DNA from: Amphiscolops sp. MND2022
Taxonomy: Eukaryota
NCBI GenBank assembly: GCA_964187785.1
Contig: OZ076409.1
Span: forward strand, 5,954,001 to 6,018,000
Direction: 5' to 3'
DNA length: 64,000 nucleotides
A program made the translations under genes and the position numbers. Each line of letters opens with the position of its first letter. Position 1 is the first letter of the stretch. A model generated the notes under the pieces. It was given only the letters and a program-made list of their open reading frames with translations. It did no database searches and had not been told where the DNA came from. Below are positions 24,841-64,000 of the stretch, one piece after another.

Positions 24841-25092
24841 ATGTCAGTCGTGCGCTCTTACGTTGAAACTTCAATTTCACTTCCCATCTCTCCCACTACC
24901 AATTTTTCAGCTCGCTTGAATCCAAAAACGCTTCTTGTTTGCATAGAGCAGTCGAACATTCCGAGTACAAAAAGTCGACAGACTTTGAATCGGATTCATT
25001 TAAATTTGACCGACTTGCAAAGGCTGTACCAAGTTATCAACTTTGTTTTAAACATTAATCCCTATCATATAAACTCTTTCCAAGAACAATGA
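24841..25092 (+). CDS. Small Polinton hypothetical protein
   Basis: ATG-initiated ORF in the gene array; its stop overlaps the next ATG (ATGA). Confidence 0.55.
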   Translation: MSVVRSYVETSISLPISPTTNFSARLNPKTLLVCIEQSNIPSTKSRQTLNRIHLNLTDLQRLYQVINFVLNINPYHINSFQEQ

Positions 25093-27039: not shown

Positions 27040-27076
27040 CAAGAATCACTTTTACGCCTAACTCAGTTCCCGACAG

Positions 27077-28309: not shown

Positions 28310-28339
28310 CTCGGAAGCTCCTTGAACAAACTGGTGGAA

Positions 28340-29242: not shown

Positions 29243-29285
29243 GAGCTCCATTCTGGTCAAAGTCATCACACTAAGCGGTCGCTAT

Positions 29286-29777: not shown

Positions 29778-29793
29778 CTTTTCTATTTTCCCA

Positions 29794-31765: not shown

Positions 31766-31835
31766 CTGATGGGTATCAAACCTGTAAATGCATATAAGAT
31801 TTACAGAACCTTGCATATACATTGGCAGTTGAATT

Positions 31836-32330
31836 TTACTTTTGACAAGCCTTTTTACGGGAAGGTTCATCATCAGGGCTTACATCACTTTCAGTAGCCT
31901 CGTAGTCTATGAAGGGACAGGCAAAACGTGTAGCATCGGAATCAGAAACTTCATCATCGGTAAGGGTTTCAAAATTGATACACTGAGCTTCATGGTCAGA
32001 ATTCTCGCCGCTTGTTTGGTTGAGAAAGAATCCAGGATCAGGAGCAGCTGAAATTGAAACATCTTCGTTTCACACTCGTCGAGTTTATCGATTAGTACAA
32101 GGTATTGTATGAAAACTAACTATATTCCACAGAGCTCCATGCCTGAGCTAGAACACTGCGTTGATTGGCACAAGGAGAGCTGTTGCTAGCAGATGGGCTC
32201 ATTGTATTGGATAGAGAGCAAGTATCAGCACCACTACCAACCTCCTCGTCGGTTTCAGATTCAATGTCTGAAGCATCACCGTCGAAAGAATCATTGGATG
32301 CATCAGAATCAACAGACGAATCACTTTGAC
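31836..32330 (-). CDS. Two spliced acidic exons (32330-32121 and 32047-31836) downstream of pPolB
   Basis: Poly-T TAG acceptor, GTTAGT donor, TTTCAG acceptor, 73-nt intron; phase-1 join keeps the frame to TAA. Confidence 0.6.
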
Positions 32331-32394
32331 CTACAAAAAAAAAACAAACTTTTTTTTGCTCGAAAGACCATTCACATCTCCCCAATGTAGAAGT

Positions 32395-35300
32395 CTACTC
32401 ACTCGTTAGTCGACTAGACGATTTCAAGGAATAATGTCCATATGCAAGGGAGGATACCGTGTCATCTAAAATATACCGCTTGTCATCGTAGCAGCTCAAA
32501 GCAACCTTGTTGACAGAGTTGACAATTATTTGATGACTGGCTGATTTGAGTTGAATCATCTTTCTACGTACTGTTGATTGAGAAAGTAGACAATCCTTGA
32601 ATAAATTATGATGTAGCGTTTTTTTGACAGATTTCTGAACGCCTTTAGCACTCTGCTTGGTTCCTCCCACGTAATCGATGCTATACAATTTAGATCTCAA
32701 ACAGACAACTTCTTTTAAAACTTTTCCGTTGAGTTCATCCGTCATTGTTAATGGTACTTTTTTGTTGGTTTTGTCGTGGAGAAAATGATCAGCAGGATAA
32801 TCCGAGAGGTCCAGTAGATGTTTGAATGTGGCCATATCTTTATACAAGTCTTCAGTTTTGATTGGATAAAGCAGGGAGTCTGTGTCTTTGTACACTACTT
32901 TCAACCGGTCTGCTCCATACCGTGGAAGCATCTCCTCATAGTGAAACTTGTACAAAGAAAGTTTTGACAAATCCAAAATACTCGCGCCAACGGGTGTCGG
33001 TTTGTTCCATACCACTGAAGAGGGTTTCAAAGAAACAGTAACAAGATTTTTGCTGATGATTTTGAAACTCTTGAAGGTTGCCCGTTGAATGAATGCTTCA
33101 GCTTGAGTCTCCGTTGATACGAACTTTAGAGTACTACGTCTTCTGAGATTTTCCATTGTTTTGCCAAAACAAGCGTTCGACATTAGCTTGTAAAAGTTTT
33201 TCTCGAAGTCATTTGCGGCACTTTTACGCATTACAGTGTTTTTGGCAATGTACGTTCCCAACCATTTTGACTGTTGAAATTTTACCGCCCGGTGTAGAGT
33301 CGTGACTTTAAGACCATGTTTGACATAGAATTTTAGGTTTTCATAATGGCAAATGTAGTTTTTTTTGTCGAGCAGGGTCTCTACAAGCTTTTCATTCGCC
33401 GAGCTCATATTCAAACCAAATGACTTGGCATAATCCGATTTCCATTCTTTAGGTATTTTTAATTTTTCCGGAGCCAATGGAAGATCATTATGAGAGTCGT
33501 GTATTCCAGGAGGGTACACGAGGTCAACCTCGACGAAGTAACCAACGGGAGAGTCATTGGGCGTAGACAGAATTTCATTCAAAGTAATTTCAGGACACCA
33601 TTGATACCCTCCGAGCGGCATTTCCATTTGCATTGTTCCTGCGTACAGAGATGTTACATCAAAAAACGCCCCAAAAGTAACGTCTTTTTCAGGATTGAAA
33701 TTATCCAGATACTTGTTGTTAGCTTCAAAATGCCTCAGTGCACCAAGACCATTGATTCCTCCTCGGATTGCCTTTTCAAAAAACAACAGCTGATCAATGT
33801 CCTGCATTAGTTCCATTTTAACGCCAGTTGTGATTAGCATGGCATCCCAACTCAGGTTCGGAGCCGAATAAAAGTGAGCTGGGTCCAGCCTGTAGACTTG
33901 CATGCATACCTCCCTGAACTTTTGAAAAATGTCGGCCAGGATGAACACATCACTTTTCAGATAGATATCGTGATAGTCGCCTAAATTTTGGCAATGAAAA
34001 GCATTGTACATCTCCAAAGCACAACCATAATCTTGCTCGGTGATTTCAATACGTTGAGTCAAGGTGTTGAACCAGTCAGGGCCATAAGGTGGAAGTGGCA
34101 TTGCAAATTTTTCGAGGGAGTCGAGAAAATTGTACGGAAAGAATCCTTTTCTTGTTAATTTTTCAAAGATACTTTCAGTGATGTTTGGGAAACATGCTTT
34201 CAACAACTTGAAGTCTTGCTTGTCCAAGGTTTTAGCTAAAGAATCCAAGCTCTGAGACATAAACTGGAAGCTGTCCAGAAACCGTAAAGAATGATATTGA
34301 ATGACATCGTGACCCTTCTTGCTTTTAAATTTTTCCATGGGCATATCCAAAGAGAACGAAATATAAGTTTCATCGTTTTTAGCAATAGCTGACAACTTTT
34401 CACCAGTCTCGATTACCAAGTATTTAATAATATGATGAGCGTCATAACGCGAAAGGTTGTGAAAAAATACCGGCAGGAAATTTGTTGTTCTCGCACGCAG
34501 GTTGCACTTGGAATGAGCTACTCCAAATATTTCACCAGTTAGGTGACAGTGGTGAATTACCCGTTGACTTTCTTCCATCTCCTCACCACATAAACAGCAT
34601 CTCAAGTCATCTTGGTTCAGTAGAGAAATTCTATCATCTTTGGATATTCGTAGAATTTTACATTTTTGTTTCTTTTTGAAACACCATGTTGACCACGACC
34701 GAAGCAACTTCATTAATTGTTGAATGCAGTCTTTTCCTTTGTAGAACTCTTTCTTCACAACACTGTTACCTAAACCAAAAATTTTGGGTCAGAACGGTTT
34801 TTGTGAAACGAAAATTTTTGATGCCGAAAAACCTAATACTGACAAACTTACTTCTATCGTCGATGAGAACAGCACCAAAACTACAGGGAAACTGCTTTTC
34901 AATTTCTTTAGTGTTGCTTCCCACAGTGGTAGATGGATTCGAAGGGACATCAATTGCTTCCAAATCTGCGTAAACAATAAAGGGAACTCTCTGTGTTTTC
35001 TGCCAATTGACAAACTCGACAAAAGGAGCACACGTCGGCATACGAATTTCGAGTGGAGAATTTGATTCACAAAATTTGAAATGTTTTCTGAAATTTTTCT
35101 TGATGATAGGCTGAAAGCAGTTGGAGCAGAATTTTGACTTTGAACCTTTTTTACGTTTGCTCTCCGATCGTGTTAGTCGCTGAAGAAGATTGGAGAAATT
35201 AGTGATTAGGCAGTAGTGAGAGTTGGAGCCCTCTACCAAACGCAGAAGGTTAATTCGTCGCTTCGAAGATTTTCGCTCACTATAATACACAGCAACCAAC

Positions 35301-36286
35301 TTCCTTCCTTCCAGTTGATAGACATTGATTGAAACATCATTTGACCGCTCGAAAGTAGGAATACTGGATAAGGGCATTGGCATTCGCGCAGAATTAAATT
35401 TCAGTCGCCTCACATTTTCCTTGTGATTACTAGGATGGCTGGGTCGACCAATGAAAGAGAATATTGCAGCTGCCACGCAGTAAAGAAAACAAAAGTTGTC
35501 CTTTTTGTTCTTGATATTCAGCAAGCTGCGGGAAAGACCTTTAAGAATAATTGGCGTTGCAATGTATGAAGATCCACAGGCCATTTGGCAAGTAGCTGTT
35601 TTGACTTCAACTGAAAGTAGAGAATCTATCACCCAACCAGATCCACAGGATGCGTAAACACTCAAATTGGACATTAATTGGTCTACGTGAACGTGATATT
35701 CTTCATCTGTGATATGATCAGCCAAACGCATGAAATGAGAATTGAAGAAAGCAGTCACTTCATCGTTGGTCAGTGGTTTCACAAGTTTAACAGCAATGCT
35801 AACTCCCACCTTTAAATTGGACGATTGACTGAGTTTCTCATTCACAAAATCCATTATACTCTGTTGATTCGATATCAAATAATTGAATGGATCGATACAC
35901 AAGTCTGTTCGCATAATTTTCAAGCGATGAACTTTGAATCTATCATTAATGGCTTTAGTCGTGAATTCAACAGGGGCTGAGGAAAAGATTCTCTTTTTTT
36001 GATGTTTTATTTCATTCAGGCCGTGATCTTTTCTCTCATGAAAGTGCAAAGATTTCTCATGCGCAAAATATGTGGAACAAAAGAAAAACCTGTGAGCCGA
36101 TGGAGACTGATGTTGATTTCTAAGATGCTTCAATAAATTGTGGCTTCGGTTGAATTGACTGCGACATTCTCCGCATTCGAATGAGGTAGAGTTCTCCACC
36201 AAGTTTTGGTTATGTTTCGTTTTGAGATGGTTATTCAAAAACCGTCGAGAAGTGAAGACTTTTCCGCATGTATCACACAGATGCAT
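32395..36286 (-). CDS. polB: Protein-primed family B DNA polymerase with N-terminal C2H2 zinc fingers; one 82-nt intron (34770-34851); ~1269 aa
   Basis: Exonuclease YADLE, HNLSRYDAH, YLKSDV; polymerase FDVTSLY, KLMSNACFGK, YKDTDS; endonuclease VII-like CCLC..HHCHLTG..AHSKCN; GTAAGT..TTCTGAC..TTTAG intron joins the two ORFs in frame. Confidence 0.95.
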
Positions 36287-36774
36287 GATCTTTCATTCGA
36301 AAGAATACCTGAAAGAGAAGGCTTTCTTCATTGGTTTTTGCATTGACATTTTTGTGCTTTCATTGATTCAATCTAGTTTACTTCAATTTTAGAAAATGTT
36401 TCTATCAAAAGTAATCATTTCAATTTTTGTTGCATTTTTGCAAAACTTTTCAATCGAAAACGAGTCATTGTAATTCGATTCAGGAAAGCCTCCTCTTCGG
36501 AAATTCGATCATTTTAAAACCTTGTTTTCAGTGAACAGTCAATTTGTTTTTATTTCGAAGAAAAGTTCGGAATAATAAATGGTTCGTTTAAAACTGGTGC
36601 TTCAGGTTGAAGCAATTTCCATTCGAAAGTTTTGATAAAGTTCGGTTCAGAAGATTCAGTTTCAATAAAGCGTGATTTCATTTGAGTTTCAAATACATCT
36701 TATCAATGGAAATAGACAACCGGTGTCACTTTTGTTAGATTTGGGTTCAATTTCAGAACCATGATAGAATTCAT

Positions 36775-36960
36775 TAATATCGATACTTTGTGTGTGCCAA
36801 ATGTCAACCAACTGTCAATGTTAAACTTGTTTAGTCCATTGTGTATTCAGTTGCCATATGACTGTCACTCTCAGCTGATAATTCTAGCTACCAACTTTTC
36901 ATGTTAGCAAAAGTTGCAAAGGATTCAAAATCTACCTAAACCCCCCCTTTACTCACTACT
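36775..36960 (-). repeat. Polinton right TIR
   Basis: Inverted copy of 22908-23097. Confidence 0.95.
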
Positions 36961-45482: not shown

Positions 45483-46718
45483 AAAACTCTATCGCTGATT
45501 AGACGATATTTATCAACAGTGCATTCAATTAAATTTCAAAAAACTTAAAATTTCAGAACTGTTAGCTGTCAATCAAAAATGATATGTCAGTTATTTTCAC
45601 TTGTCAAATAAAGTCAGAGGACAAACGTTATGTGATCATGCTTCATGGTTTTTCAAAAAAGTGAACCGGTTCGCCCGAAGCTTTCTTTGGCGGGTTCCAA
45701 AACCCATCTCTAGCTTGAATGTCAAAGTTCGGCCCGCAAAACATTAGTACTTTAAGTAGGGTTACAAACTGTTTGGATTTTTTATTGACAGACAATTGTC
45801 AACAGAAGAAATGAAAAAATCTCCGATCTGTTAACGTTATCCTCAAACTTTTTAGTCACAAGTTTTTTCAAGCTTTTGTTTGATTCCAAGATATTACTTC
45901 ATTAACACCGTTTTCTGACAACAAACGTAAGGCGACAAAATTGCAACAAGCCCAACATGATCAACTTCACCGGTTAGGTCCTACAAAAAAGTAGTGGAAT
46001 ACTAAATTTCAACTGCGCTTATAATATTACAAGTTTGAGCTATTTTTTACATCTATAGGTAGATTTTAAACGAGACTTCTTTTGCGGTTTTTGTTTTCAA
46101 ACGAACGTACGTCCTGTAAGTGTCAGACTTTTCACTGGGGAATTTTTCAACAGTTTACAAAAAATTAATCGGTTGGACTGTTGTTCATGTTTTTTTATCA
46201 CGAAACAAAAACGTGATGGGATCAATTTTACAGATAATATTAAAGACAACCATTTGCATATGTTTTTAGGTCCAAATTTGTTCGCAGCGTTTAGCGTCCG
46301 CTGCTCTTAGTAGCTGGTATTTGTTGGTCTGAATGGATGGCTGAACCCCAATATTATAACGTTTGTAATTCCGAGAAAATTATAAGGCCGCCTTTTTTAC
46401 CACTGTCAACTTCTGAACATTTTTTATCTAACGAAAAGATAACCTGTAGGGATTTTTTCCAATTAGAAATTGATGTTTTTCGAACCCGAAGGCTCCTTGA
46501 TGTTTACGAGAAAATTTACGAGAAAAATTTTCCCAACACTTGGAATTAGAAGAAAGGTTTCAGTTAGTTTTTCGAGTGTCGACGGTGCATTATCCGGGTA
46601 ATTTCTGACATTGCCAGGTTCACAAGAAGTTTCTCGAAAATTGACTTCGAGCATATTTCAAAAACTTTGCTGTTTTAGAGCCTTGGGCGTTGTTTGTTCT
46701 ATTTAGGAATAAACGTTC

Positions 46719-48444
46719 TGTAAGTAGTGTTGTCCATATGATCCCTCAGATCACAAGCGGACCTTGAGTCCTTCTTTGTAAATTTCGTATTTGCGTTCTT
46801 CCATACATTCCCAATTCCGTCCTCATTTGCGGACGTACACGGCTCAACGCCATGTTGACTCAAAGGCAAGTTTTCCACCATGTTTTGTATTTCTGGGATA
46901 AATCTCTCACTTCTGGCAGAACTAATGGCCCTGCTAATCTGTGGTTGCATTAGGCCCATCATGGCTTCCATCTCACGTGACATCCTAGCATTCATTTCTC
47001 CAGACAACATGTTAATTGACTCCACTAGCCTCCTTTCTCTAACAGGCTCATTTCTACTATCGATGTCTCTGATCTCATTCTCTTGAGATGAAGTTTCTCT
47101 GTTAGGAAAGGATTGAAAGTCTTGCTGCCTTTCTGGGACATTAATTAGGCTATCTAGATCTCTCTCTATTGAGTTTGAATTTCCTTCACCTAACTTTACG
47201 TCCATGTTGCCGTAGTCGAACAACATATCTAATTCTCTCGATTTCCTGGCTTTTGCCTTTTGTTTCCTTGTAGAGGGCATTGAAAATGATTATCCAGGAG
47301 TAAATACTTGAATTGTTCCTGTGGACAATATTAACTAGGCTTCACAGTGAATCTTGCACAATATGTATAAGAGCAACTGAACAGTAACCGTATTATAAAG
47401 ACAATTGTCTTTCAGGGTCAAGCTGGGCGTATTTATACCCAAATTACCATGACACTCATAATTCTAAAGGTCATGTTACTAAAAATAACTTACAAGTTAT
47501 AAATAAAACACGTCACTGCTAAAAATAGCATCGTTACGTCACAAAGGTCATTTGAAGGCGGGTAGATCAAAGTGCCTTTTTAGGCCATGTGACGAAGAGG
47601 TAATGATATTCATATGCAGCAAACTATATGCAAACACTTTTACATGTAGATAAAATTCATGTATAACACAACTGATGAGTAGCTGAAAAGGACCTATAGT
47701 TCCTTTTAACAGCGCAAAGCAACATTACATTTGAACATGTTCATGAAGGCCCTATACGGCTATTGCCCGTTAAGGTTCTCTAATTTAATCCCAATCATAA
47801 CACGGAAAGCAACACTACATGTTAGCAATATACATGTCTGGTCATTACATGGGGGGGTTACTTGTGTCTTTCCATCACTAATTAATTGAGACACCAATTT
47901 CATATAATAAGTACACAGCATTTGAATGCTTATTGCGTCAACCGGCCGTGATAGGCTTTATTTACTGTATAGCACAAAGACACTTAGTACAGTGAGTAGG
48001 GACAGCTAAGTCACATAGCCGCTTTCGTCCCATTTGTAATTACTGAATATTATTCAAGTACAGCATCAAAGCACAGTAAGGCCGGCAAAGGTAATTGGCC
48101 GTATTGGTCCATTCTAAATAGCACTAGCGCAGTTACGTAATAAGTAATAAGATGGCTGTTATAAACTGCACTCTGATTGGTCAATTCACCATGGACGGCT
48201 TAGTTAGCTATACTGGACAGGCAAACATTTGAACACGTTTCCTTTCTGCCTGTCAGTATAGCTTGCTGTCAAATGTATTTTACATAGAGAATAATAAAAC
48301 AATTCACCGATCAACATTACATATTCAAAATAATACTAAATGTTTGAAAGTTTTAGTTTTATAATGGGAGCGTCCCAGGTAGAGCAATTGGCCTCGTATG
48401 GTCAATTGTATAGATGTTGCCATCGCAGGCGGCAGCCTGCGACA
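46719..48444 (-). repeat. 3' LTR of element 2 (includes a copy of the gag 5' end, 46719-47280)
   Basis: Direct repeat of 59944-61669; preceded on the minus strand by a short PPT AGGGGGAG. Confidence 0.95.
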
Positions 48445-49196
48445 CTCCCCCTGGTAGTAATAGGAAAGTGCCCACCTGCATTCCTTCCATAAAAGATCTT
48501 TTGCGCGCTTCTAGTTGATCTGCCGATTCTCCCAAAATGGCTGTCTTGCGCAAATAATCTGTGACTGCTTCACTCTAGATTTGTAATGTCGATTTCCCAC
48601 ATATCACACAGTCTGAGTAATTTGCCATTGGATTGTTCGTCTCAATACCCATTCCTTGAAAATGGTTTGTAATCGAGTCCAAGGACTGTTGGGAAGTTCC
48701 GGATTGACCGTCCGCCGAGTAAAAATCTTGAATTGGTCCCTGCTCTTCAGGTGGGGGCGACATCGGAGTATCCACCATAGGAATGATTTCCCTGCACAGC
48801 TTGATAGGGTGATTATTGTGCACTCGATCGTCTCGCCTTATTGGGCCATTTCCTCTCCCCAATGAGAAAAAGGATTGGTCAAGAGTAGGCCTCACTGTAA
48901 AGCTCGTCCCGGAGGTCCCGTACCTTGGTAAGTTGTAGTGGGGGGCTTCATTTCTAATTTTCAGCGCTGAGGGAGGACCAGGTATTGGGATGGGCGATGA
49001 CAATTGCATCTCGACACATTGGGCCATCATCATGATTTCGTCATCTATTTCCTCGTCTTCCGATGACAATTGAAGATCTAGCACTGAAGTCATGCTCAGG
49101 TCACACATTTCTTCCTCTTCGTCACTAGATAGGCAGATTATGTCTACACCTGCGGCCGCTGCGCCTTGAAAGTCTTCAGGGTATCGGGCGGCCATG
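48359..49196 (-). pseudogene. Accessory ORF3 (SIM-like acidic motifs, CxxC) running across the PPT into the 3' LTR; one in-frame stop at 48575
   Basis: MAARYPEDF..VDIICLSSDEEE..VLDLQLSSEDEE..CVICGK..RKRSFMEG; homologous to ORF 63695-63973. Confidence 0.7.
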
Positions 49197-49841: not shown

Positions 49842-52800
49842 ATGGACAGCTCTGGCGTTGCCGTCTTCCCACCAGTAGCGCCAAATGTTATTCTTGACCC
49901 CAATGTTTCCTGAATTTGAAGGGGAATTTCATGCAGATTCGGGACACAGTGACTCTGAACAAGAACAATATCGCTCTAAAGTGGACGGAGCCGACAGACA
50001 ACTCTCAGCCAAGGGTAAATTAATCATAAAGAAATACTTTCAGGAAACTCGTCCCATTGAGTTACCTAGGGACCACCCTGTCATTGCCCTCACTGCAGAT
50101 GAGATGCATGCCGTCCTAAGGACTGTCTCTGACGAATCTGTACTCTCGTCGTATCTTATGATGAAGTCCTTATTGCTTCATGCTACCCGAGGCGTTCCTC
50201 AAGACAAGAAAAGGTCCTTGCCTAAACGGTGCGCAACACCCGCTCGGCCAGACGTTTACAGTTCAGGAGATGAAAGTAGCTTTGGGGGACACTCGTCAGA
50301 TGGGAATACCAGTGGGGTCTTCAATACTGATGAGAATCCTTATCAATTAGGATCCATCTCTGGCACCTATTACCTGAGTGAAGCTGACCCTTTAACACTC
50401 ACCCCTAAGACCCGTACAGGCGGGGTAGCATGTACGTCCCAAGCAGAGACTGTGACTCCAACTTCTGGGAGCGGGTACAGTAGCACTGATTATCAGCCGC
50501 TCTCAACGCTTGGCCGACTGCCCGAACAGAAAACCCAGGTCAGAAGCCCACCCCGGAAAAGGCGCAGATTACTTAGTAAGCCCGGAAAGGTGATGAAAGA
50601 CGCCTATTTCAAAGGCATCCAATGGACTCGAACTTTTGTGTCCGGCCCCGTTGACCATGTCCACAATAAGTTCAAGTTTTACTGCTGATATGTAAAACCA
50701 ATGTTTCCATCTTCTCCAAGGGCGCCAGGGAGATTCTCAGACAGTATAAAACTGAAGGACATCTCCGAAAAGATCAAAAATGGAGATACATCCACCTGCA
50801 AGAAACCGATGAGATTACTGGAGTCACTACCCACCAAGTCAGAGGCAAAGACGCTTATGTCCTTACTCCCATTGAGCTAGAGCGTGAAAAGCCTCTATTC
50901 TTGGATATTCCCCTGGTCGAAACAGGTGATCGTTTTCCATTCTACGACGATTACATGGCCAGTATTGGAGGATTTACCAACCCCGATGATCTTCGTACCG
51001 GTACCCTCATCTCGTTGATTGGGACTTTTGTGCCAAGGGATGGTAACATCTCGCTCCTAAAAAGTTTGTGGACTCGCGTGGGGGTGTTTACTAATCACCA
51101 AGCCCTGTTCTCTTCATTCGATTGGGGATAAGCTACTCTTACAGTAAGTAGTGATTTTGTTTGCAATATTGCTGGTAAGACCCAAAATGGCCTTTGGTTA
51201 CAACGTCCCTTTACAACTTGGTGTTTTGTTTTAGAATATCTTCCACCACGTTTTTATGAGGGGACTTGCTGATATCTCTACACACATCATGGCCACTGAG
51301 ATGTACTCCATTGAGTTCACTACAGAGGGTATCTACCGCTGCATGTCTGTTCGTTTCTGGAGGGATGATTCACTCGTTCGGGTTGAACTGCATCGGCACC
51401 AACAAGCTGAGTCCTATCCAGGCTGTTATTTAACAGCTATCTCGTGCCTGCTGTCATTTGTATCTTCAAAGCCCAACCTTGTTAGCATCTCCGGGTGCTT
51501 TTCCATGATCTTTAAAACTTTGGAAACCTGCGGACTGTTCAGCCATGGGATCCAATATCCATTTCGCTTCGAGGTCTTCTCTCTTCCTGAGTTGATGCAT
51601 CCTGAGGCATTGCAGACTGGTTACATCTTCGGCCGAATTGACATCTTCTCGCAGCTGAAGTTCTTAGTTGTCTTCCTGCGAGGCGGACTCAGTCAGCCTT
51701 GGGCCCTAAAGAGTCTTGAACTTTGCAAGGTTAATCACTTTCTTGATCATAGTTTTTTCATTATACATAGTCATGATGTTCCGATGTCGACAAGCCTTTC
51801 TGGTCAGTTTCATAATGGCAAATAGGAACTCTTTTCATTTGATCGCTTTCCATAGGCCATAACAGCATGTGATGTGTTTAATTGAAGAAGATCCCCACTA
51901 TATGCACTGAGCTCGGTAAAAACTGGAAGCCCATCAAAGACTACCTTACCAGTAAGGCCCCTACTCAAAAGATGCAAGGAGTCAAGAATAAGGTAATTAT
52001 CTGTCGCTTTTCTTCTAGTCTATGTCTCTTGCACTGATTCGTTGTGTTTTTGGGTGTTGTGATACTCATGAGCCGATTTCTTTTTCAGCCTCAAAGCCTG
52101 GAATGGGAGATTATCCTAGACGACTTCTTCACCATCAAACTTGAATTTCTCTCATTGCTGGTGCGCGATTGTTAGTCATTTTCTTTGTATTTGTTTGAAG
52201 TAACGGGGTAGAAGCCCTACTAAACCACGTGCCGGTCACGGCTTTAGCCATAACTATGTTTGTAGCAGCTTAAGGTATTTGGTAGGTTCTGGTAATTTGC
52301 ACCTAAACCTGGATTTGTTTAGATACCAAGTGTTTTGAGCGCAGTCTGTCCGGGCGACGGGATGCAACACTCTTCATTTACGGCCAATATTGTAGTTTTG
52401 TCCGTCGGTTGTGTCACCGTGCCGTGCCGTCTTGCCTAAATGCATTCCGAGCGATACAGACTGGACTGGCCTCTTGCAATTGTGCCTTGACGATCTGAGG
52501 TTAATGTCATGTCGCGATTTCCTGAATCAACTCAAGTTAACGTGTGACCTCGATCAGGCTTACCAAGCAAAATTGGAGAGATCTCGCGGGGAGAGCCCTG
52601 CACCAGCTAATCAGGATGAGCTGGTCACCAAGGAAAGAGAGACCTTTGGGACAGAAGCCCGGACGTATATAGTCTCTCTTCTAGGGTCTTTGCTTCGAGA
52701 TATCCACTTCTCTGCAAATATTGTGCACGGCATGGGCAGTTTCGATCCTCATGTGTTGTTGACATTACCTCTTGAACAGGCATCTTTCTGTTTCAACGCT

Positions 52801-53427
52801 TTGTACGACAGTTTTCGACTCCGCGGTTGGGTGGACGAGTCTTCCCGAAGTGACTGCCGTGATGAGTACTTCGAGTTCGTGGATTATTTCCGTGAAACTT
52901 ATCCTTCCATTACGTTTTCACCTGGGACTGTTGCCGACATATTGGACTTCCTTATCCCAATTCCTGCCTTCCGAAGCCGCACTAGACTGTTCCACTTAAT
53001 CCGGTTGTGCTGCCTTTGCATTATTGAGGAACATCAGGCCCTTCCTGCCATCAAGTTTCAGGATGTCGATACCTCTAGTTCCCGTTGCCGCCTTTCTGCT
53101 GTAGTGCTGCCTGCTCAGTCCTACCTGACGAATTGCCCTGGAGCTGTTGCTGTTTGCACTACTGAGGCCGCCTTGACCAACTATAAAGAATTGGAGGGGC
53201 AGTTTAGTTCTGGACAGACTCTTACTACTGCCTTCAAGAATTTAAAAGGAACTCCTGTGGTTGGCACTAGCACAGCGTCACGATCATCCTCTGTATCGAC
53301 TTCTGCTGGACGCAAGATAAATTGGGCTGCTGGTCAAGCTCAGAAGTTGGCCTATTTCGGCGACATCCCACCTAGTGAGCTTTCAAAGACTGTCCAGAAA
53401 TTACGAGAAGGAAGCTCTAAAGACTAA
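49842..53427 (+). pseudogene. Antisense multi-exon gene inside element 2; BED-like zinc finger and hAT-transposase-like traces
   Basis: ORF blocks 49885-50688, 50901-51131, 51256-51825, 52411-53427; in-frame intron 51144-51234; further donors ~51730 and ~51993, acceptors ~51855 and ~52088; AATAAA ~53560. Confidence 0.75.
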
Positions 53428-53595: not shown

Positions 53596-56500
53596 CTAAT
53601 ATCTGTACTCATCAGTAAAGTTAGGGTTGGGGTTAGGTCGAAGATTATATTTCCCTCCTCTAGGGCTAGATGTTTCATTTTCTTCATTATTTACAATGTC
53701 CGATATTCCGGGCACGGAATTATCCTCTCCCCTGTTAGGAGAATTTCCAGTACTATCGTTGTTTTCATTCAGTGAATCCGTGGGCGTGTCACCAGTATTT
53801 TGGTTATTTCGGCTAGTGGCCGTACTCGGCCTTTTGATTTCGCTGCGTTGTTCATCCTTTGCTGCTTGCTCGTTGACGTCATTTTCGTCATGCAGTATTG
53901 GTGCGTCTCGGCTAGCGGTCGTACGCGGTCTTGTTTCATTCTCAGTAGTGGTGCGTTCATTCACTTCGAAGACGTCATTTGCGTCTCGTGCGAGTATGCC
54001 TCCTCGGCTGGTGGCCGTTCTCGGCCTTACCGCGTCGTCATTAGCATCATCATAAATGACATAATCATCGTTTGAGCCGCTACCATTAGTGTCTGCCTAT
54101 TGTAATTCTTCATTCGGAATGTCGTCCTGTCTCGGCTCGAAGACTTGATTGTCAAAATCAGCTTCCCATGAGATGGTATATAAATCATCTTGCGGAATGA
54201 TTATTTCATCATCAGGTTGCAATTTCTCTTTGGAATATTTGTCCTCTAAAGGCGTGTTAGGAACGAATTTTTTCAGACGAATTCGGTGTAATATCTGCGT
54301 TTTATTTGTATTCAATCGACGAACAATATAATTGTCGTTAGGTAATACTTTTTCAATTCGATAAGGACCAATCCAACGGTAATCCCTGAAGGGTATTTTC
54401 GATCCTTGATTATCTGCTTTAGGCTGCAAGATGAAACAGAAATCTTGTTCATTCAGATGGCCTGCCTTGGCTTTGCGGTCATAATATTCTTTATATTTTA
54501 AGTATGACTGCATAATGTTTTGTTTCGTTTTGTCAATCAGAATTTGTGTTCGTTGTTGTAGTTCTTCCGCGAATTCTGTTGTAGGCAAGAAATCCTTGTT
54601 GGGATTATTCCCAAGTTTGTGATCTAGGACGTTGTATGGAATCCGTCCATGGAAGACCTTGCTTGGCTCACAGCCAATACTAGAATGGTTGGTAGTATTA
54701 TAGTTGAGTACAGCCAGTGGTAAGTATTTATGCCATTGACGGCGGTATTCCCCTGAAGCCATTTTCAAATTTATTTTGAGTGAAGCGTGAGTCCTTTCAA
54801 GTTTGCCAATCGTTTGCGGGTGTTTAGTAGTTGCGCATTTCAGTGTAATTCCGAGGATTTTCGTTATTTCATCAATGATTTTGGATGTAAATGCGGTTCC
54901 TTTATCCGTGATAAGTGTAGTTGGCAAATAAGCGTGTTTGGTCATAATGTCGATCAAGACCTTCGCTGTGATTGAAGCGGTAGCTTCAACTAACGGGTAG
55001 GCGAACAGGTATCTGGAGAAAACGTCTATTGCCGTCATTATCGGTTGGTAGCCACCACTTGTTGGTAGGTTTGGTAACAAGTCAATTTGCATTGCGTCCT
55101 CAGGACCAAGGTCCCATTAAGGCAAGTTAAGTAATTCTGGGGTTATTGAGTTGTTTGGAACTCGTTTGTCTTTTGCACAAATTTCACATCCCTCTACCCA
55201 TTTTTTGACATGTTTAGCTATTCCTGGGTAGTAGTATTTCTGGCGTATTTCTTGTAGCATTTTGGATATGCCCGGATGTTTGTGCGCAGTTCCGTGCAGT
55301 GCCTGTGAGAGCTCTCTCAGTAAATGTTTTGGAAAGAGTATTTGGTGGTATTTGACTTGCCCCGTTTCGTCATAGTACTGTCGCGTGACTATTTCGTCTT
55401 TGAGGACTAGTCGGTCGAAATTGTGAAGGTAGTGTTTGTATCGGATATCCTGCTGAAGTATTTCTTCAGAATAATCTTAGTTCTGAATTTTAGCCTTGAG
55501 TTGGCGCAATATAGGGTCTTTGGATTGTTCAAGAAGAATCTGATTCATTCTGCGCAATTTTTGGGTAAAGTTTGTGATTTCGTCTACTATGTTTTCAGAT
55601 ATTGCGTCAATTTGGATTACGCCTTCGTGGTCGATCAGGTTGTTACGGCTTTGTTTTTTGCGTTCCCAAATCTGGGCTTCCGTCTCTTCATCTTGTTCCG
55701 TGAAGAAAATTTGTTCCTCTTCTGCCACGCCTGCCGATTAGACATTGACCTCAATGGGTTTAGTTTCTATGTCTTCGCGGATTTTTAGGACTAGTTCCTC
55801 TCTGGGGTCCATTTCCATGCGAGATAAGTAGTCGGCTGCTGTGTTGTTTTTCCCTGGGATATGTGCTATGACAAAGTTGAATTGTATTACATAGTCACAT
55901 GCGTTCCAGAGTGTCGGAGGAATTATCTTTGTCTGAAAGAATCTCGTAACCGATTTATTGTCGGTAAGGATGGTGATCGGTTTGGGCGCTCTCCAAAAAG
56001 TATGTCCAAATTCTTTGAATGCGTAATAGATTGCTAAGAATTCTTTGGCATATATTGACATTTTGAGTTGCGATGGCGTAAAGGTTTTTGAGCCATATGC
56101 GATCGGAGCATATGATTTTTTGACGGATGATTATTTTTGGTGTGGGTCGTCCTCTGTGAGTATGGCATAGCCAGCCGCTGTGAAGCTAGCATCAGTCATG
56201 AGGACTAGTTGTTTGTTCGGTAAAGGTTGTTTAAGAGCCAATTGGCTACACTTGTCAAGGTCTCGATTGATTTCATTAAATTGTTGTACTAGCTCTGTGG
56301 TCACTAGGACCTTTTCGTCCTTTTTGAGAAGTTGGAAGAAAAGGGCTAGTTTTTCAGATAGTCTTGGAATGTAGTTCCTGTAATAGTTCAGGAATCCAAG
56401 GTATCGTTGTAGCGCTTTCTTGGATCTTGGGAATTTGGTTTGTTCAAGGAAGTTTGTTATTCTTTCCTTTTGTGATTTGACGCCCTCAGGGGTGATTGTT

Positions 56501-57200
56501 CTCCCTAGAAAGTCAATTTCCGTTGCCCCAAAGTGGCATTTGTGCATTGTTAGCTTGAGGCCTGCATGTCTGATGCATTCAAACGTTGCTCTCAAATTTT
56601 TGATAAGATGATCAGGATCATTGGCAGCTATGCCGATGTCGTCCACACATTGATCGGCTTTGATGACTTTATCGAGGTATTCTCGCAAAAAGCTTGAAAA
56701 GGCTGATAATGCTCTGCTAAGGCCTTGAGCTAGTCTTCTATAAGCAAACGTGCTGCTTGCAAAGTTGAACGCAAGCATCTCAATGGACCTCTGGTCCGCT
56801 ATTGGAAGGCAATGGTACGCCTGTGAACAGTCAAGTTTACAGAATAATTTCTTGCCCGCCATATGCTGTGCGGCGTCCGTTAAGGTGCTAACTGGATGAT
56901 TGTTATTTATATAGTCATCTGAAATATGGTTATTGATTTTCCTTAAATCGACTAAAAGTCTCAGTTTCCCATTCGTCTTTTTCTGTGCAAATATGGGACT
57001 AGCATATTTAGAGAATGGCAATGTAGTTATGATGCCATATTTGTGTAAAAGAGCCAGTTCGACGAGGATGTCCTCTTTTAAAGTGACTGGAGTAGGTAGA
57101 CCTTGGCTATATGCAGGCGAATTGTCCTTAGGAGTTAGTTTTACTGTGAATTCTTCATTCATTCCTATGTCAAATCTGTGTCTGGCAAATATATCGTGAT
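53596..57200 (-). pseudogene. pol: Pol of element 2: RT, RNase H, integrase and repetitive C-terminal tail (disrupted)
   Basis: LRLLVDLRKIN, CVDD (YVDD damaged by deletion), MTDAS, HHCC, IDLL..TDKG..GKLER; tail with RPRT(A/T)xSR repeats ending GGKYNLRPNP. Confidence 0.92.
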
Positions 57201-57206
57201 ATTCGA

Positions 57207-58808
57207 CTAGAAGCGATTCGTTCTTCGTGTAGAAGCGATTTCGTGTTGATGTAGCTTCGAGTCTTTCCAGTCAAAGTTGCTAAGGATTTTACGTCGTGAC
57301 TCCTCATCATTTTGAGGGTTTAGTTGCTCGGCCTCTTGGAGGTTGCGTAGTTCTTGAAGGATCCGTCTCTGGATAGGAGTGTGAGAATCCTCGTCCCCTG
57401 GGTTTTCTGGTGTTGGAAACCAGTACTGTTCGTATTGATCGTTGTTTCGGTTAGCCTTGAGTAGACTACTGACATAGTAGATGACATCTTCTTCATTTTT
57501 GTTGAGAAGATGCCAAGTGGACACCGGGTCTATTGGTTTAACGTGTTTCATCTGTTCCGGCGTTAGTACTGAGAAGTTTGCTATGTGTAGTCCTCTTTCA
57601 ACCTTGTAAGGTTGATCTGAGAAATTAATGATATGGACATTAACGGTTCCATTAGTCAATGTGACTATTGCGGCACAAAATGTGATATCGCCCTCCTCAT
57701 GGAGGAGATCACTGGGTTGTAACACTCTTCTGACCGTGTTTCCATTGTAGATTTGTGATTTGATTTCTACTAGAGTACGGTCATTGGGTGGTATTGTGAC
57801 ATCGTCTGGGTTAAGAATAGGTTCCAAGACGTTAGAGTATTTGTGGTCAGCCGTTTTGGAGAAATAGGGGAAATTAAGGATGCCTTGTCGCATGTCCAGG
57901 ACTGTGTGATTCCTTCGAAGGAACATTGGTCCTATGATGGGGCCAGTCAGTTTTTCCTTTACTATAAAGATTTCATGAAATTCAATATCTCCCACCTCAA
58001 ACTTGAGTTCAACAGTGCTCTTTGGGGTTTCCAATTGTCCATTTGCGACCATAATTTGAAATATTGGAGCAGGACCTTCTTTGACAATGGATTGAGGCGC
58101 CAATAGGCGTATTTTCCTGAGGTCTGCATCCGGAATTGCACTAGATAAGGCTCCAGTGTCTAAGAGGCCGTCTATGGTTAGTTCTCCAAAGTCCATCGGG
58201 AAATATAGCATCCGTTTTTTGTGTTTGAGTCCGAGGTTCGTGGATAAGGGTATGTACGCTGGTTCTCCTTCTTTAGTGATTAGGACATGTAAGAAAGCTG
58301 ATTCGTCCAATAGGCCTGGTTCTCCTTCTTTATTTAGATCCTCTATCTCCTGCTCATTGGTGATTTCAGAGTTAGGTTGCCACAATTGGATGAGTGCCCT
58401 TGTTAGCTTGTTATCTAGGACTTCAGGGTCATCCTCGTCGTCTGTTGGCGGATGATCGTCACATTTGAATTGCAGTTCTCTTTGGTCATAGAGGGAATTG
58501 TCCCAGTATGGATCAACTCCATATTCAGGATCAATGTAGTGGGGGTCATAATCTTCAATTTGTTGAAGTGGTCTGAATCGTGATTCAAAAGCTGTAGTAT
58601 AGTCTATGTCGTAGTATCTGTCTGGGCGGTCGTTGTGGACCATTTTGTACTTTTTAATGTAAGTTTTCTCCATCTGTTGCTGCCAGACAACTGATGGTGT
58701 TCCGTTGATGTCACTCTGTGATTGCTTGTTGGCGATGTTAGCTGGGTCCGATATGACATATTTTCGTATCGACATTTGGTCAGAAATTTGGAGTCGTGGC
58801 GAAATTAG
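57207..58808 (-). CDS. pol: Pol N-terminus: acidic spacer, aspartic protease, dUTPase-like fold
   Basis: LLDTGA, PIIGPMFL; open in the -1 frame from the slippery site. Confidence 0.85.
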   Translation of the reverse strand, partial: LISPRLQISDQMSIRKYVISDPANIANKQSQSDINGTPSVVWQQQMEKTYIKKYKMVHNDRPDRYYDIDYTTAFESRFRPLQQIEDYDPHYIDPEYGVDPYWDNSLYDQRELQFKCDDHPPTDDEDDPEVLDNKLTRALIQLWQPNSEITNEQEIEDLNKEGEPGLLDESAFLHVLITKEGEPAYIPLSTNLGLKHKKRMLYFPMDFGELTIDGLLDTGALSSAIPDADLRKIRLLAPQSIVKEGPAPIFQIMVANGQLETPKSTVELKFEVGDIEFHEIFIVKEKLTGPIIGPMFLRRNHTVLDMRQGILNFPYFSKTADHKYSNVLEPILNPDDVTIPPNDRTLVEIKSQIYNGNTVRRVLQPSDLLHEEGDITFCAAIVTLTNGTVNVHIINFSDQPYKVERGLHIANFSVLTPEQMKHVKPIDPVSTWHLLNKNEEDVIYYVSSLLKANRNNDQYEQYWFPTPENPGDEDSHTPIQRRILQELRNLQEAEQLNPQNDEESRRKILSNFDWKDSKLHQHEIASTRRTNRF

Positions 58809-60505
58809 TTTTTTGAGTCAGGCTTTTTTGAATTGGATTGGCCTGATGTAGATGTTGTTGGTTTTTCGTTTTTAGTGCGGGTGTCTTCGTCTTGAGGGGG
58901 CTCCGTGTCGTTGGAGTCATTTCTATTCCGTTTTGGACGAAGGTGGGCACCTTCAGCACGCCAACATTTCTCTGCTGGGTGGTTAGTTTTGTTGCAGGTG
59001 GGACATTCTGGATAAGTTGGGCATTGAGGCTTCTTGCCATTTTTGGCCTCCAATTCCTTCTTCTTTTTCAGTTTTGGACAATTTTTCCAGAAATAGTCTT
59101 CAGCCTTGCAGTACGAGCATTGGTTATTTTGGTTGGTATCAATGCCAGTGGATAATAGATTTTCCGTTTTGCCTGACGATGACACCATTGTGGCTATGGG
59201 TAGGTCGTCAGATTCTTCTAAGGCGTTTAATTCAAGCTTTCTTTCCAATTGTGCCACAATCTCCTCGTAGGTCCCGTTTTCCAGTCGGGCCATATTCACG
59301 GATCTTTTGAGTTTTGGTGGTAACTTAGCATATAGGAGGCTATCGATCATGCTCTTGGCGTTTTCCCCAAAAGCTTTCTCGGCACCCTGGTTGAGTTCTT
59401 CGATGAAGTCGGGTAGTTTCATTATGTTGGGGTCGAAAATGAGTCTGTGCCACTTGTGTTTGGCTGTGGCTTGAGACTCGGGTTTAACGTACTTGCGACG
59501 AAAAATGGCGAGTACGTCTTCCAGTGTTTGACGGTTTATAGAGTTTACATTTCGGAAAGTTTGTAGGGCTCCTCTTCGGAGCAATGAATGAAATTGGTTT
59601 ATTTTCATTTGTTCCGTCATAGCGGGCTGCATCTTTATCATTGTATGAAATAAGTCTTCAAACAATTCAAATTTTTCTGCTTTGCCGTCAAATGTCATGG
59701 GGTTCGTAGTGACTGGTCTAATTGTCATTGTCTGTGGTTTGTTCGTGAGATTTACCAGGACATCGGCCAGTCGGTTGATGGGGTCTTGTGGCTGTTCAGC
59801 TGTAACGGGCTCCGCCACTGGTAGAGTTGTATCCAGAGTTGTATCACGCGCGGATTCTTGTCTCTGAAGGTCTGGCTGAGAGTGAATTCGTCCTGTGAGG
59901 AATTCAGGAATCGGATGTTGGAGTTCGTTAGCTCCTGTCACTATGTAAGGAGTGTTGTCCAAATGATCCCTCAGATCACAAGCGGACCTTGAGTCCTTCT
60001 TTTTAATTTTCGTATTTGCGTTCTTCCATACTTTCCCAATTCCGTCCTCATTTGTGGACGTACACGGCTCAACGCCATGTTGACTCAAAGGCAAGTTTTC
60101 CACCATGTTTTGTATTTCCGGGATAAATCTCTCACGTCTGGCAGAACTAATGGCCCTGCTAACCTGTGATTGCATTAGGCCCATCATGGCATCCATCTCA
60201 CGTGACATCCTAGCATTCATTTCTCCAGACAACATGTTAATTGACTCCACTAGCCTGCTTTCTCTGACAGGCTCATTTCGACTATCGATGTCTCTGATCT
60301 CATTCTCTTGAGATGAAGTTTCTCTGTTAGGAAAGGATTGAAAGTCTTGCTGCCTTTCTGGGACATTAATTAGGCTATCTAGTTCTCTCTCTATTGAGTT
60401 TGAATTTCCTTCACCTAACATTACGTCCATGTTGCCGTAGTCGGACAACATATCTAATTCTCTCGATTTCCTGGCTTTTGCCTTTTGTTTCCTTGTAGAG
60501 GGCAT
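58805..60505 (-). CDS. gag: Gag of element 2 (566 aa), starting inside the 5' LTR
   Basis: FDGKAEKFELFEDLF capsid-like region; knuckles CSYCKAEDYFWKNC (degenerate) and CPTCNKTNHPAEKC. Confidence 0.9.
   Translation of the reverse strand: MPSTRKQKAKARKSRELDMLSDYGNMDVMLGEGNSNSIERELDSLINVPERQQDFQSFPNRETSSQENEIRDIDSRNEPVRESRLVESINMLSGEMNARMSREMDAMMGLMQSQVSRAISSARRERFIPEIQNMVENLPLSQHGVEPCTSTNEDGIGKVWKNANTKIKKKDSRSACDLRDHLDNTPYIVTGANELQHPIPEFLTGRIHSQPDLQRQESARDTTLDTTLPVAEPVTAEQPQDPINRLADVLVNLTNKPQTMTIRPVTTNPMTFDGKAEKFELFEDLFHTMIKMQPAMTEQMKINQFHSLLRRGALQTFRNVNSINRQTLEDVLAIFRRKYVKPESQATAKHKWHRLIFDPNIMKLPDFIEELNQGAEKAFGENAKSMIDSLLYAKLPPKLKRSVNMARLENGTYEEIVAQLERKLELNALEESDDLPIATMVSSSGKTENLLSTGIDTNQNNQCSYCKAEDYFWKNCPKLKKKKELEAKNGKKPQCPTYPECPTCNKTNHPAEKCWRAEGAHLRPKRNRNDSNDTEPPQDEDTRTKNEKPTTSTSGQSNSKKPDSKN
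58808..58814 (-). promoter_or_regulatory. -1 ribosomal frameshift slippery site A AAA AAC
   Basis: Immediately before the gag TAA; the -1 frame reads KKLISPRLQISDQMSI into the protease ORF. Confidence 0.8.
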
Positions 60506-61669
60506 TGAAAATGATTATCCAGGAGTAAATACTTGAATTGTTCCTGTGGACAATATTAACTAGGCTTCACAGTGAATCTTGTACAATATGTATAAGAGCA
60601 ACTGAACAGTAACCGTATTATTAGGACAATTGTCTTTCAGGGTCAAGCTGGGCGTATTTATACCCAAATTACCATGACACTCATAATTCTAAAGGTCATG
60701 TTACTAAAAATAACTTACAAGTTATAAATAAAACACGTCACTGCTAAAAATAGCATCGTTACGTCACAAAGGTCATTTGAAGGCGGGTAGATCAAAGTGC
60801 CTTTTTAGGCCATGTGACGAATAGGTAATGATATTCATATGCAGCAAACTATATGCAAACACTTTTACATGTAGATAAAATTCATGTATAACACAACTGA
60901 TGAGTAGCTGAAAAGGACCTATAGTTCCTTTTAACAGCGCAAAGCATCATTACATTTGAACATGTACATGAAGGCCCTATACGGCTATTGCCCGTTAGGG
61001 TTCTCTAATTTAATCCCAATCATAACACGGAAAGCAACACTACATGTTAGCAATATACATGTCTGGTCATTATATGGGGGGGTTACTTGTGTCTTTGCAT
61101 CACTAATTAATTGAGACACCAGTTTCATATAATAAGTACACACCATTTGAATGCTTATTGCGTCAACCGGCCGTGATAGGCCTTATTTACTGTATAGCAC
61201 CAAGACAATTAGTACAGTGAGTAGGGACAGCTATGTCACATAACCGCTTTCGTCCTGTTTGTAATCACTGAATATTATTCAAGTACAGCATCAAAGCACA
61301 GTAAGGCCGGCAAAGTTAATTGGCCGTATTGGTCCATTCTAAATAGCACTAGCTCAGATACGTAATAAGTAATAAGATGGCTGTTATAAACTGCACTCTG
61401 ATTGGCCAATTGACCATGGACGGCTTAGTTAGCTATACTGGACAGACAAACATTTGAACACGTTTCCTTTCTGCCTGTCAGTATAGCTTGCTGTCAAATG
61501 TATTTTACATGAAGAATAATAAAACAATTCACCAATCAACATTACATATTCAAAATAATACTAAATGTTTGAAAGTTTTAGTTTTATAATGGGAGTGTCC
61601 CAGGTAGGGCAATTGGCTTCGAATGGTCAATTGTATAGATATTGCCATCGCAGGCGGCAGCCTGCGACA
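59944..61669 (-). repeat. 5' LTR of element 2
   Basis: Direct repeat of 46719-48444; followed by PBS-like TAGTGACAGGAG inside gag. Confidence 0.95.
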
Positions 61670-62058
61670 CGTTCACTTCCTTTGTGCTGCGGCAACCTCA
61701 GTAATGTTGACTGGTTTTCTGCATCATTAGTTGTGTGAACTCCTAAGAAGTGATCTCCTTCAAAACGTCTCCCATTAAACTCTCCGTCAATTGCAAACTT
61801 CATGATTTTACACCTGCTCTTGGAGAAGTTGATAGTAACACACATAATCTATACAGTTTTTTTCTTGAAACTCTTATAATTCTAATGTGGGGCATGATGT
61901 TTTTGTAGCATAAAGGGCTTGGATTTAAACTGCATACAATAAGAAACGACGTACTAATGCTGTATGATAGCCATATATTTAGAGGAAAAATCTTATTGTT
62001 CGATGTCCCAGCAATCATGATCACAAATTGTCGGTTTCTCTTTCTCGACAATTGTTAC

Positions 62059-63738
62059 TGTGATAATCCTCTCTTAAGGGTTCAGCGTCAGATTCTTCGT
62101 CAGAATGAATAGTCACATCTACATCAGATTCAGCTCGAAACAATGGTTTCGCAGGATGCTTAAGGTCTTTCATCTTAGACGCTCTTAGAGGATAATCGTT
62201 GTTTTCAGAATCTGAGTTTTCATTATTAGATGCGTGAACTCTTATAGACGGGTCTATTCTGGATCCCGATGGTTGTGGTTCTTGTATTTCATTTATATCA
62301 GATCTTGGGTTTGTTGCAATTGAAGTATTTTTGTTGCATTTTATCTCTTTCAGAATTGCTTCTAGTTTACTATCCATTTCTTCTCTTATTCTCTCTATCC
62401 TTTCGGTATTTTTCTGCTCAACAATTTGTGTCCAAACTTGTATTTCATCACTAATTTGACTGGGTTCTCTTAGCTGGTTTTCCAAGTTTGGTTCACCTAA
62501 ATTTTCTTGAACATTTAAGTTAGAATTAGTTAAAGTTATATTACCTGTTTCTGAAGAATCGATCCTAGTTTCGCTTGTTTCTCTCTCAGTAGATGGGGTT
62601 GCTAGTCTCCTCGATCTTCGACTTCTTTTATTTCCCATTTTGCTCAGTAGAAAACAAGTTATGTTTGCTGGGGAAGAATTTGAATTATGTTCTCAAATTG
62701 AAAATCCAAACTTGAAAGAGAACAATGAAGGCAGTGGAAATGTGGGTTAGAGCTTATAGGAATTGGATCAACTGCACTCGGTGAAAGTTATTTCAATTGT
62801 GTTTTTCTTACAAAATCCTTATTTTCAAAAATATAAAACAATGACAATCATTTTTGCGAGCATCATAGAATCCTGGAAAATCTAAAAATAGGATAACGTC
62901 AGATTGCGTAATTCTATTTATATCATCTCCATAATGACGTAAATGCTTCTAATCATCCTTAAACCCTAGGAAAATGCTGCAAAATGATATATTGAACATC
63001 GCAAATACTATCTGATACAGTATAATTGCATGACATTCAAAAACTGCACATTTAGCTGAAAACCGCATAACTCCGCATATACGTCAGCCTCGAAACCGTA
63101 GGGTGACGTATAACACACGTGAACATTTTCCTCACGTTTGCTTAGTATTGTATATACAGCACAACACGATCCGCATAATATTTGCTAGAAACCGTATATT
63201 AACGTATAATCGTCACTGCAAGAAACGCATAGTGACGTATACTGCGAATGGCGAAATGGTATATTACCGCATACACTAATGATTCAAAACGTATGTTATC
63301 GCATATTCAAAAGCGTATAATGACGCATACTTGAAAATCATTTCACGCATAATGAAGTATATTCGTAAAGCTATTTCATGTATGATGACGCATCCTTATT
63401 AGTTGAAAAATGTCTAATGACACATAATCGCAATTCTAATTGTAGCATGATTACGCATAATGAAAGATCAAAAATCACAGATTTACCTTACTTATGTAGC
63501 TTTTAAGCACATGTTACTCTTATGAATGAATTTTAGATGAACTAGACGTCAATGAAAGGCTCAGAAAATATCTTAGAATGAAATTCATCAATGGAAATAC
63601 ACAAATAATTCCAAGACATTGTAGAATAACATCAAAAAGGAGTTTCGAGAGAGTTTAAAATGTTTTATTGTTAAGTCTTTCCAGATGTTCCTTTTCATTG
63701 CTGCACCACGGAACCATCGCATCTCGAGGGATGCGACA
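62059..63738 (-). repeat. 3' LTR of a related Gypsy family (element 3) containing a gag-like 5' ORF (62059-62638)
   Basis: TGTCGCA...TCACA ends; ORF MGNKRSRRS.. truncated at the LTR end as in element 2; ORF3 homolog enters it at the same register. Confidence 0.7.
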
Positions 63739-63973
63739 GTCCCGCATTTTTAAAAAGGAACAATGCTGCTTCAAATCCGTGGATGAATGCTCTAGATCTG
63801 ATCGCCCTTTCTTTGACCGTCTCGCCTTCATACTCTGTCGCAACCAGGTATTCACCTAGGGTCTCCAGTGCAATCTGATCGTAACATTTGCCGCAGAGTT
63901 CACAGTACCCCGCAACATTCGCCATCACTGTAGGAATCAGCCTGATGCTATTTCTCTCCTGTGCTGGGATCAA
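63695..63973 (-). CDS. ORF3 homolog of element 3 (C-terminal part)
   Basis: CELCGK..YL..GE..RAFIHG..CDG aligns with CVICGK..YL..GE..RSFMEG..CDG of element 2 ORF3. Confidence 0.7.
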   Translation of the reverse strand: MIPAQERNSIRLIPTVMANVAGYCELCGKCYDQIALETLGEYLVATEYEGETVKERAIRSRAFIHGFEAALFLFKNAGLSHPSRCDGSVVQQ

Positions 63974-64000
63974 TAGGGAATTGCTGCTATGAGTCGCATT

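Follow-up and report, generated by a model that had tools for sequence, protein, structure and literature searches.

A gypsy-type retrotransposon from Amphiscolops sp. MND2022 with a gag reading frame that starts inside its long terminal repeat

The element and its neighbourhood

The window analysed here is the whole 64,000-nt stretch of contig OZ076409.1 (positions 5,954,001 to 6,018,000 of the forward strand, assembly GCA_964187785.1) from Amphiscolops sp. MND2022; all coordinates refer to positions within it. It contains a retrotransposon of 14,951 bp, which runs from 61669 to 46719 on the minus strand (Table 1). Self-BLAST of the window identified one ungapped repeat of 1727 nt (46719-48445 / 59944-61670, 97.1% identity), which was trimmed to two LTRs with TG..CA ends, and the target duplication is exact, with five identical bases on either side of the element. 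The gag ATG (60505) is nucleotide 1165 of the LTR, and the original prediction that both 1726-bp LTRs include this codon together with 562 nt of coding sequence is borne out by the self-BLAST alignment, the trimmed termini and the ORF positions. Substitutions between the 5' and the 3' LTR are spread evenly (33 in 1164 non-coding nt, 17 in 562 coding nt); half of them are transitions (25) and half transversions (25), which is a low share of transitions. A hairpin lies in the first 23 nt of the LTRs of this element and of the neighbouring family described below (61647-61668, 48422-48443 and 63716-63737), with stems that differ in sequence and still pair. Between the candidate TATA box and the gag start of the first element no other ATG is found. 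AATAAA, looked for across the LTR of this element, is absent, and an ATTAAA within the coding part was considered as a poly(A) signal and rejected, as the 3' LTR does not have it.

The order of profile matches in pol is gag-asp_proteas, RVT_1, RT_RNaseH_2, rve and Integrase_p58_C, with the protease, RNase H and p58_C matches below the cut-offs. Pol overlaps the end of gag in the -1 frame, and its broken state agrees with LTRs that have diverged by 2.9%. The best matches of the RT among solved structures are a foamy-type RT (E-value 3.7e-27) and the Ty3 RT (E-value 2.6e-22). DUF1759 and Peptidase_A17 are together profiles of the Bel/Pao type; the former matches the element weakly (23.5 bits, cut-off 25.4), and the latter was not found on the pol pieces scanned, which gave gypsy-type RNase H and protease matches instead. 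By the geometry of its LTRs, target duplication and polypurine tract, its pol order and its capsid fold, the element is a decayed Ty3/gypsy-type LTR retrotransposon.

Two further coding regions lie between pol and the 3' LTR. The extra sense ORF has no match to any Pfam family; its homologue in the second family (63695-64000, minus strand; 36% identity over 73 aa, E-value 3e-13) also enters a 3' LTR, and the ORFs of both families contain a CxxC motif. By their reading frames, both ends of the LTR are predicted to be coding in both families. The antisense ORFs have no Pfam or Atlas match above noise. Scattered inverted matches of 9-11 nt occur around this region, without clear ends of a nested insert, and by eye a zinc-finger-like Cys/His pattern can be made out after a basic stretch.

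The second, distantly related family is represented by a 3' LTR whose element body extends past the edge of the window. We assign the repeat as a 3' LTR because the homologue of the extra 3' ORF runs into it. Its start (63738) shares the first seven bases with the LTR of the first element, and its polypurine tract is less purine-pure. An alternative delimitation as a solo LTR of 1.45 kb, which was considered on the basis of a 6-base flank match near 63511, was rejected in view of the hairpin LTR start and the upstream ORF homologue at 63738. The two related elements lie in the same orientation, about 390 bp apart (61669-62059). The description of the neighbour at 62059-62638 as a divergent relative with the same layout holds for the layout and not for the LTR-borne ORF: comparison of the LTR-borne ORFs of the two families detected no similarity (best E-value 0.27), and the kinship is visible only through the Gag core of full-length homologues of the second family, which is 42-43% identical to that of the first family (five compared). 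The window also contains a Polinton/Maverick-like element (22908-36960) with inverted ends of 191 nt at 92% identity, which encodes DNA polymerase B, integrase, an A32-type ATPase and a C48-type protease, and an unrelated gypsy-type element (1362-10325, minus strand) with a zinc knuckle, RT, RNase H and integrase. The latter includes a 3.3-kb tandem duplication at 99.6% identity (2625-5950 / 5957-9278), either recent or an assembly artefact.

Table 1. Features of the retrotransposon and of its neighbour (positions in the window)
Feature	Positions	Strand	Remarks
5-bp target-site duplication, upstream copy	61670..61674	-	
5' LTR	59944..61669	-	1726 bp, TG..CA after trimming of the repeat
Hairpin at LTR start	61647..61668	-	9-bp stem
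Candidate TATA box	60657..60662	-	157 nt upstream of gag ATG; motif match alone
gag ORF	58805..60505	-	566 aa: leader 1-187, linker, capsid, two zinc-knuckle-like motifs
LTR-borne part of gag	59944..60505	-	187 codons + 1 nt (562 nt); basic N-terminus, predicted helix 80-126
Putative primer-binding site, read in gag frame	59932..59943	-	fit of position and family motif
Candidate -1 frameshift heptamer	58808..58814	-	putative; pol overlaps gag end
pol	53596..58817	-	protease-RT-RNase H-integrase; five in-frame stops and a frame change
Antisense coding region, in pieces	49879..53427	+	about 3.5 kb, between pol and 3' LTR; element ORF or nested insert
Extra sense ORF	48359..49195	-	one in-frame stop here; reads through polypurine tract, 83 coding nt into 3' LTR
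Polypurine tract	48445..48452	-	just before 3' LTR
3' LTR	46719..48444	-	1726 bp, TG..CA; 50 substitutions and 0 gaps against 5' LTR
Truncated gag ORF of 3' LTR	46699..47280	-	193 aa (187 LTR-coded + 6 flank)
5-bp target-site duplication, downstream copy	46714..46718	-	
3' LTR of second family	62059..63738	-	1680 bp; ATG at LTR nt 1101, 580 coding nt
Truncated gag ORF of second family's 3' LTR	62021..62638	-	205 aa (193 + 12 flank)

The gag frame across the LTR end

From the ATG the gag frame passes the LTR end and the primer site and continues into the capsid. It was proposed at the outset that the frame crosses the LTR end in mid-ORF and that the primer site is itself coding; both are correct, as the ORF runs on through 59943-59932 and this segment is in frame with it. 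The AlphaFold model of Gag is weak (mean pLDDT 48, with residues 1-82 and 126-240 under 50). In the leader it predicts a single long helix at residues 80-126 with pLDDT of about 57-74, the remainder being mostly of low confidence, and residues 72-140, predicted as a complex of two copies without use of the alignment, gave a score of 0.01. Foldseek with the whole Gag model returned no match at E <= 0.001. Residues 343-431 of the model align with the CA-CTD of Copia, Arc, PEG10 and MLV (Z-score 9.2-10.8, rmsd 2.3-2.9), which leads us to infer the capsid CTD in this segment and to place a putative NTD at about 270-340. Relatives of Gag have CCHC matches in Pfam, and one of them gives weak matches to Retrotrans_gag and Ty3_capsid.

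Evidence for the family comes from predicted proteins without DNA, in which the LTR ends of other copies are deduced from the pattern of residues; such data show open frames only and thus carry an ascertainment bias. We compared the best 120 of 2499 matches to Gag, 119 of them other than the query, and all these 119 long relatives among the matches listed have Met at the junction (116 YMVTG, 2 HMVTG and 1 YMVRG), as do, in the form HMVTG, 97 of 101 longer homologues of the second family. The search with the truncated ORF returned 339 short matches, the best 120 of which were taken. Leaving out the query, 119 listed proteins remain: 81 diverge immediately past the junction Y or H, 13 go on as gag, and the motif is absent from 25. 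For 80 of the 81 flank-reading ones, the residue after the junction can be coded by a codon starting with A, as predicted for an LTR that ends in ..AC-A and is followed by unrelated flank, while at the control position one residue later this is so in 39/81. Among 84 cluster members read, 24 end at the LTR junction, and 23 of these fit the same rule. The LTR boundary drawn from the window thus recurs in other copies. Scans of metagenomes for further DNA copies gave 45 and 62 pattern matches, none of which was confirmed as a locus.

The layout extends well beyond close relatives. When the part of Gag that follows the junction was used as query, 1394 representatives were matched at E <= 0.001, and from the best 150 of these we picked 28 distant ones by hand; in these, the LTR end was deduced from the junction motif only. 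Sixteen have a residue before the junction Met, which is Y, H, D or N in 16/16 (the products of N-A-C codons), seven begin at the Met and five have no motif. In eight distant representatives whose N-termini are basic, the leader measures 114-223 residues and the core is 43-88% identical to the query. The suggestion that the layout is a family trait is supported: it is common to many copies and reaches distant families, and within the limits of such protein data a gag start inside the LTR is confirmed as a clade-wide layout.

At the level of codons, the junction residues imply an LTR that ends in ACA, followed by a primer site that starts with TGG. At the junction codon the present copy differs from its relatives in reading Ile and not Met. 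The original prediction of a 10/12 match to a tRNA-Leu-type site stands as a partial and not as an exact match: of the two mismatches one is private to this copy, and the other is family-wide because Thr190 is invariant in the aligned proteins (42/42). A search for tRNA genes in the 64-kb window found none. Three of 425 proteins (P0237, P0295 and P0326) have MVTGVG at the junction, followed by sequence that is not gag; these are possibly LTRs of these families that are attached to different internal regions and use a longer primer site, and a site of the Leu type would fit. In two others (P0432 and P0445) a junction-like motif occurs twice, at a spacing of 24-35 residues; this is the pattern that a duplication of the LTR end and primer site would leave, with a shift of the boundary and a longer leader.

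Constraint, fragments and alternative readings

The leader varies little in length: all 115 family-A proteins that have the family start fall within 181-190 aa, and 76/77 family-B proteins within 186-196 aa. The frame is open even in distant family-A leaders, which share 42-46% identity with the query and align to it with two or three in-frame gaps; in a neutral, substitution-only simulation it was open in 0/3000 runs at 45% identity and in 7/3000 at 60%. The LTR-borne frame is thus under constraint to stay open, as the earlier interpretation required. Along the leader, conservation comes in blocks, with 0.86 for residues 1-20 and 0.22-0.28 for 41-100. Conservative changes make up 0.27-0.33 of all changes in distant family-A leaders, not above the neutral value of 0.28 +/- 0.05, whereas in closer pairs they reach 0.42-0.51 against 0.31-0.34 under neutrality, with a clear excess in three of four comparisons. 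What is constrained is mainly the open frame, its length and some blocks of sequence, a pattern that would be expected if the region is disordered.

We consider it probable that the element is a decayed gypsy-type copy from a clade in which Gag starts deep in the LTR, and that the truncated Gag fragments are a passive by-product. Genomic RNA would start in the 5' LTR upstream of the gag ATG, near the candidate TATA box at -157; in the first element this ATG would be the first AUG after that start, and the ribosome would initiate there. The second family, with three ATGs between its candidate TATA and the gag ATG, counts against this step. The product, of about 565 aa, would have a basic, largely disordered Gag leader of about 115-225 aa that includes one long helix; from its composition, the leader probably serves RNA binding, localisation or particle nucleation. 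A -1 frameshift would lead into pol. Sequence at the integrase attachment end and at the primer site would serve two uses, which would fix the junction as Y/H/D/N-M-V-T-G. Priming would occur inside the coding sequence, with a strong-stop product of roughly 700 nt, and reverse transcription would put the leader segment at both ends of the element, so that every 3' or solo LTR would carry a stop-less leader running into random flank. Selection would act on the leader in transposing copies and not in inserted 3' or solo copies.

Could Gag proper start instead at the AUG formed by the LTR end and the primer site, the LTR frame being translated rarely or as a longer isoform? The junction Met of all 119 long relatives listed would agree with such a start, as would the position of the entire capsid downstream of it, the leaders of the two families in the window, which share no detectable sequence, and the seven of 28 distant representatives that begin at this Met. 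The Met is, however, explained by the DNA signals alone (the LTR end and the first bases of the primer site), and the present copy does not have it. The upstream frame is open where none of 3000 neutral runs was and is best kept in its first 20 residues, and the seven proteins in question are only 93-391 aa long and may be broken copies. We therefore regard a start at the junction as unlikely. It is barely credible that the repeat extends beyond a shorter true LTR into gag as the result of a local duplication, a conversion or an assembly error in this copy. The other near-perfect duplication in the window (3.3 kb, 99.6%) demonstrates that local duplication occurs, but the TG..CA ends, the exact 5-bp target duplication and the polypurine tract all fit the 1726-bp unit, divergence is even between its non-coding and coding parts, and the boundary recurs in 80 of 81 short relatives and in the second family.

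The fragments themselves exist as reading frames. The 3' LTR does encode a 193-aa Gag N-terminus that reads into the flank (ORF 47280-46699), and open truncated ORFs of 3' or solo LTRs, as anticipated, are found in many copies, 81 of 119 short relatives ending at the LTR boundary. The analogy to Ty1 p22 that had been drawn for them finds no support: they have no capsid CTD, their tails are like random flank, and decay of the 3' copy is no slower than that of the 5' copy. The fragment ends about 155 residues before the CTD. Tails are as long as in random DNA (median 15 vs 15, KS p-value 0.28) and start in 78 distinct ways among 81 fragments; being random in sequence and length, they speak against an evolved C-terminus. 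In the coding part of the LTR pair we counted 3 synonymous and 14 non-synonymous changes (pN/pS of about 1.2, on 17 changes and hence with low power), and six changes are private to the 3' copy, seven to the 5' copy and one is unclear. The changes are as site counts predict without selection, for one LTR pair and with low power.

These observations bear on a third possibility, namely that 3' or solo LTRs express the leader and thereby restrain the element, through poisoning of Gag assembly or competition for RNA or host factors, with an effect that rises with copy number. Such a role could draw on the abundance of open truncated ORFs, on the promoter and ATG that a solo LTR retains, and on the predicted helix, which could mediate contacts. 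Yet the leader lacks the capsid domain, whereas Ty1 p22/p18 and Drt2 use the CA-CTD, according to the passages of PMC8458377 and PMC13709905 that deal with them; the frame meets no stop codon where the LTR ends, and the fragments have random tails; decay of the 3' copy looks neutral, with the little power that 17 changes give; and RNAs of this kind would be stop-less if polyadenylation took place within the coding part. We find restriction by the leader quite improbable. A broader version, in which LTR cassettes coding at both ends limit the element independently of capsid or seed host genes with fragments or fusions, while leader and promoter turn over between families, seems to us rather unlikely. 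Passive formation of the fragments from a Gag that starts deep in the LTR remains our preferred reading.

Comparison with known elements and implications

The layout is known from Ty1, and the new part is its size. In the parts of PMC5454406 and PMC4974528 that describe Ty1, its RNA has a 53-nt UTR and a primer site at nt 95-104, inside GAG; a gag start within the LTR and a coding primer site are features that it shares with the present element. From these numbers we calculate about 41 coding nt in the Ty1 LTR, as compared with 562 and 580 nt here. Ty1 belongs to Ty1/copia, whereas the present element has the gypsy domain order, an LTR of 1.7 kb and an extra ORF that enters the other LTR end. 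Ty1 Gag, too, has a non-capsid N-terminal domain, as described in the relevant passage of PMC13709905. The restriction factor p22/p18 acts through the capsid C-terminal domain (Ty1 Gag 259-355), in the account given in part of PMC8458377. The fragment described here resembles p22/p18 and Drt2 in being a partial Gag that could come from the element's own sequence; those proteins, however, are the CA-CTD half and come from an internal transcript (relevant passages of PMC8458377 and PMC13709905), whereas the present fragment is N-terminal and capsid-less, with a C-terminus that is not fixed.

With Ty3/gypsy elements the present one shares the PR-RT-RH-IN order, an RT that matches Ty3, a CTD like those of Arc, PEG10 and Copia, with Z-scores of 9.5-10.8, and the -1 overlap of gag and pol, whereas the primer site of Ty3 is in the untranslated ends, as stated in part of PMC4974528. 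In a V-clade element of fish it is pol and not gag that overlaps the LTR (as far as the relevant passages of PMC11117352 describe it). Plant Athila/Tat/Ogre/Retand elements are likewise large, with long LTRs and poorly conserved extra 3' ORFs in either orientation, but the plant-mobile-domain and Transposase_28 profiles have no match in the present element, and the passages of PMC6317226 on these elements describe no gag start in the LTR. Our phrase searches of open-access literature found no gypsy-type LTR with a long gag N-terminus; Repbase and older subscription papers lay outside their scope and may describe one.

Our analysis indicates that, throughout a diversified gypsy clade, one third of Gag can be contained in an LTR, an overlap more than tenfold that of Ty1. 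If LTRs are taken to be non-coding, annotation would shorten these Gags and call solo and 3' LTRs orphan genes by the hundreds (cf. the 339 short matches above). The invariant junction peptide would allow LTR ends and primer sites to be read from protein data alone. A defensive role of the fragments, if true, would be novel as a mechanism, yet none of our results points in that direction. Finally, each solo LTR may be viewed as a potential promoter with a 187-codon exon that is open into host DNA, and thus as a testable source of fusion genes.
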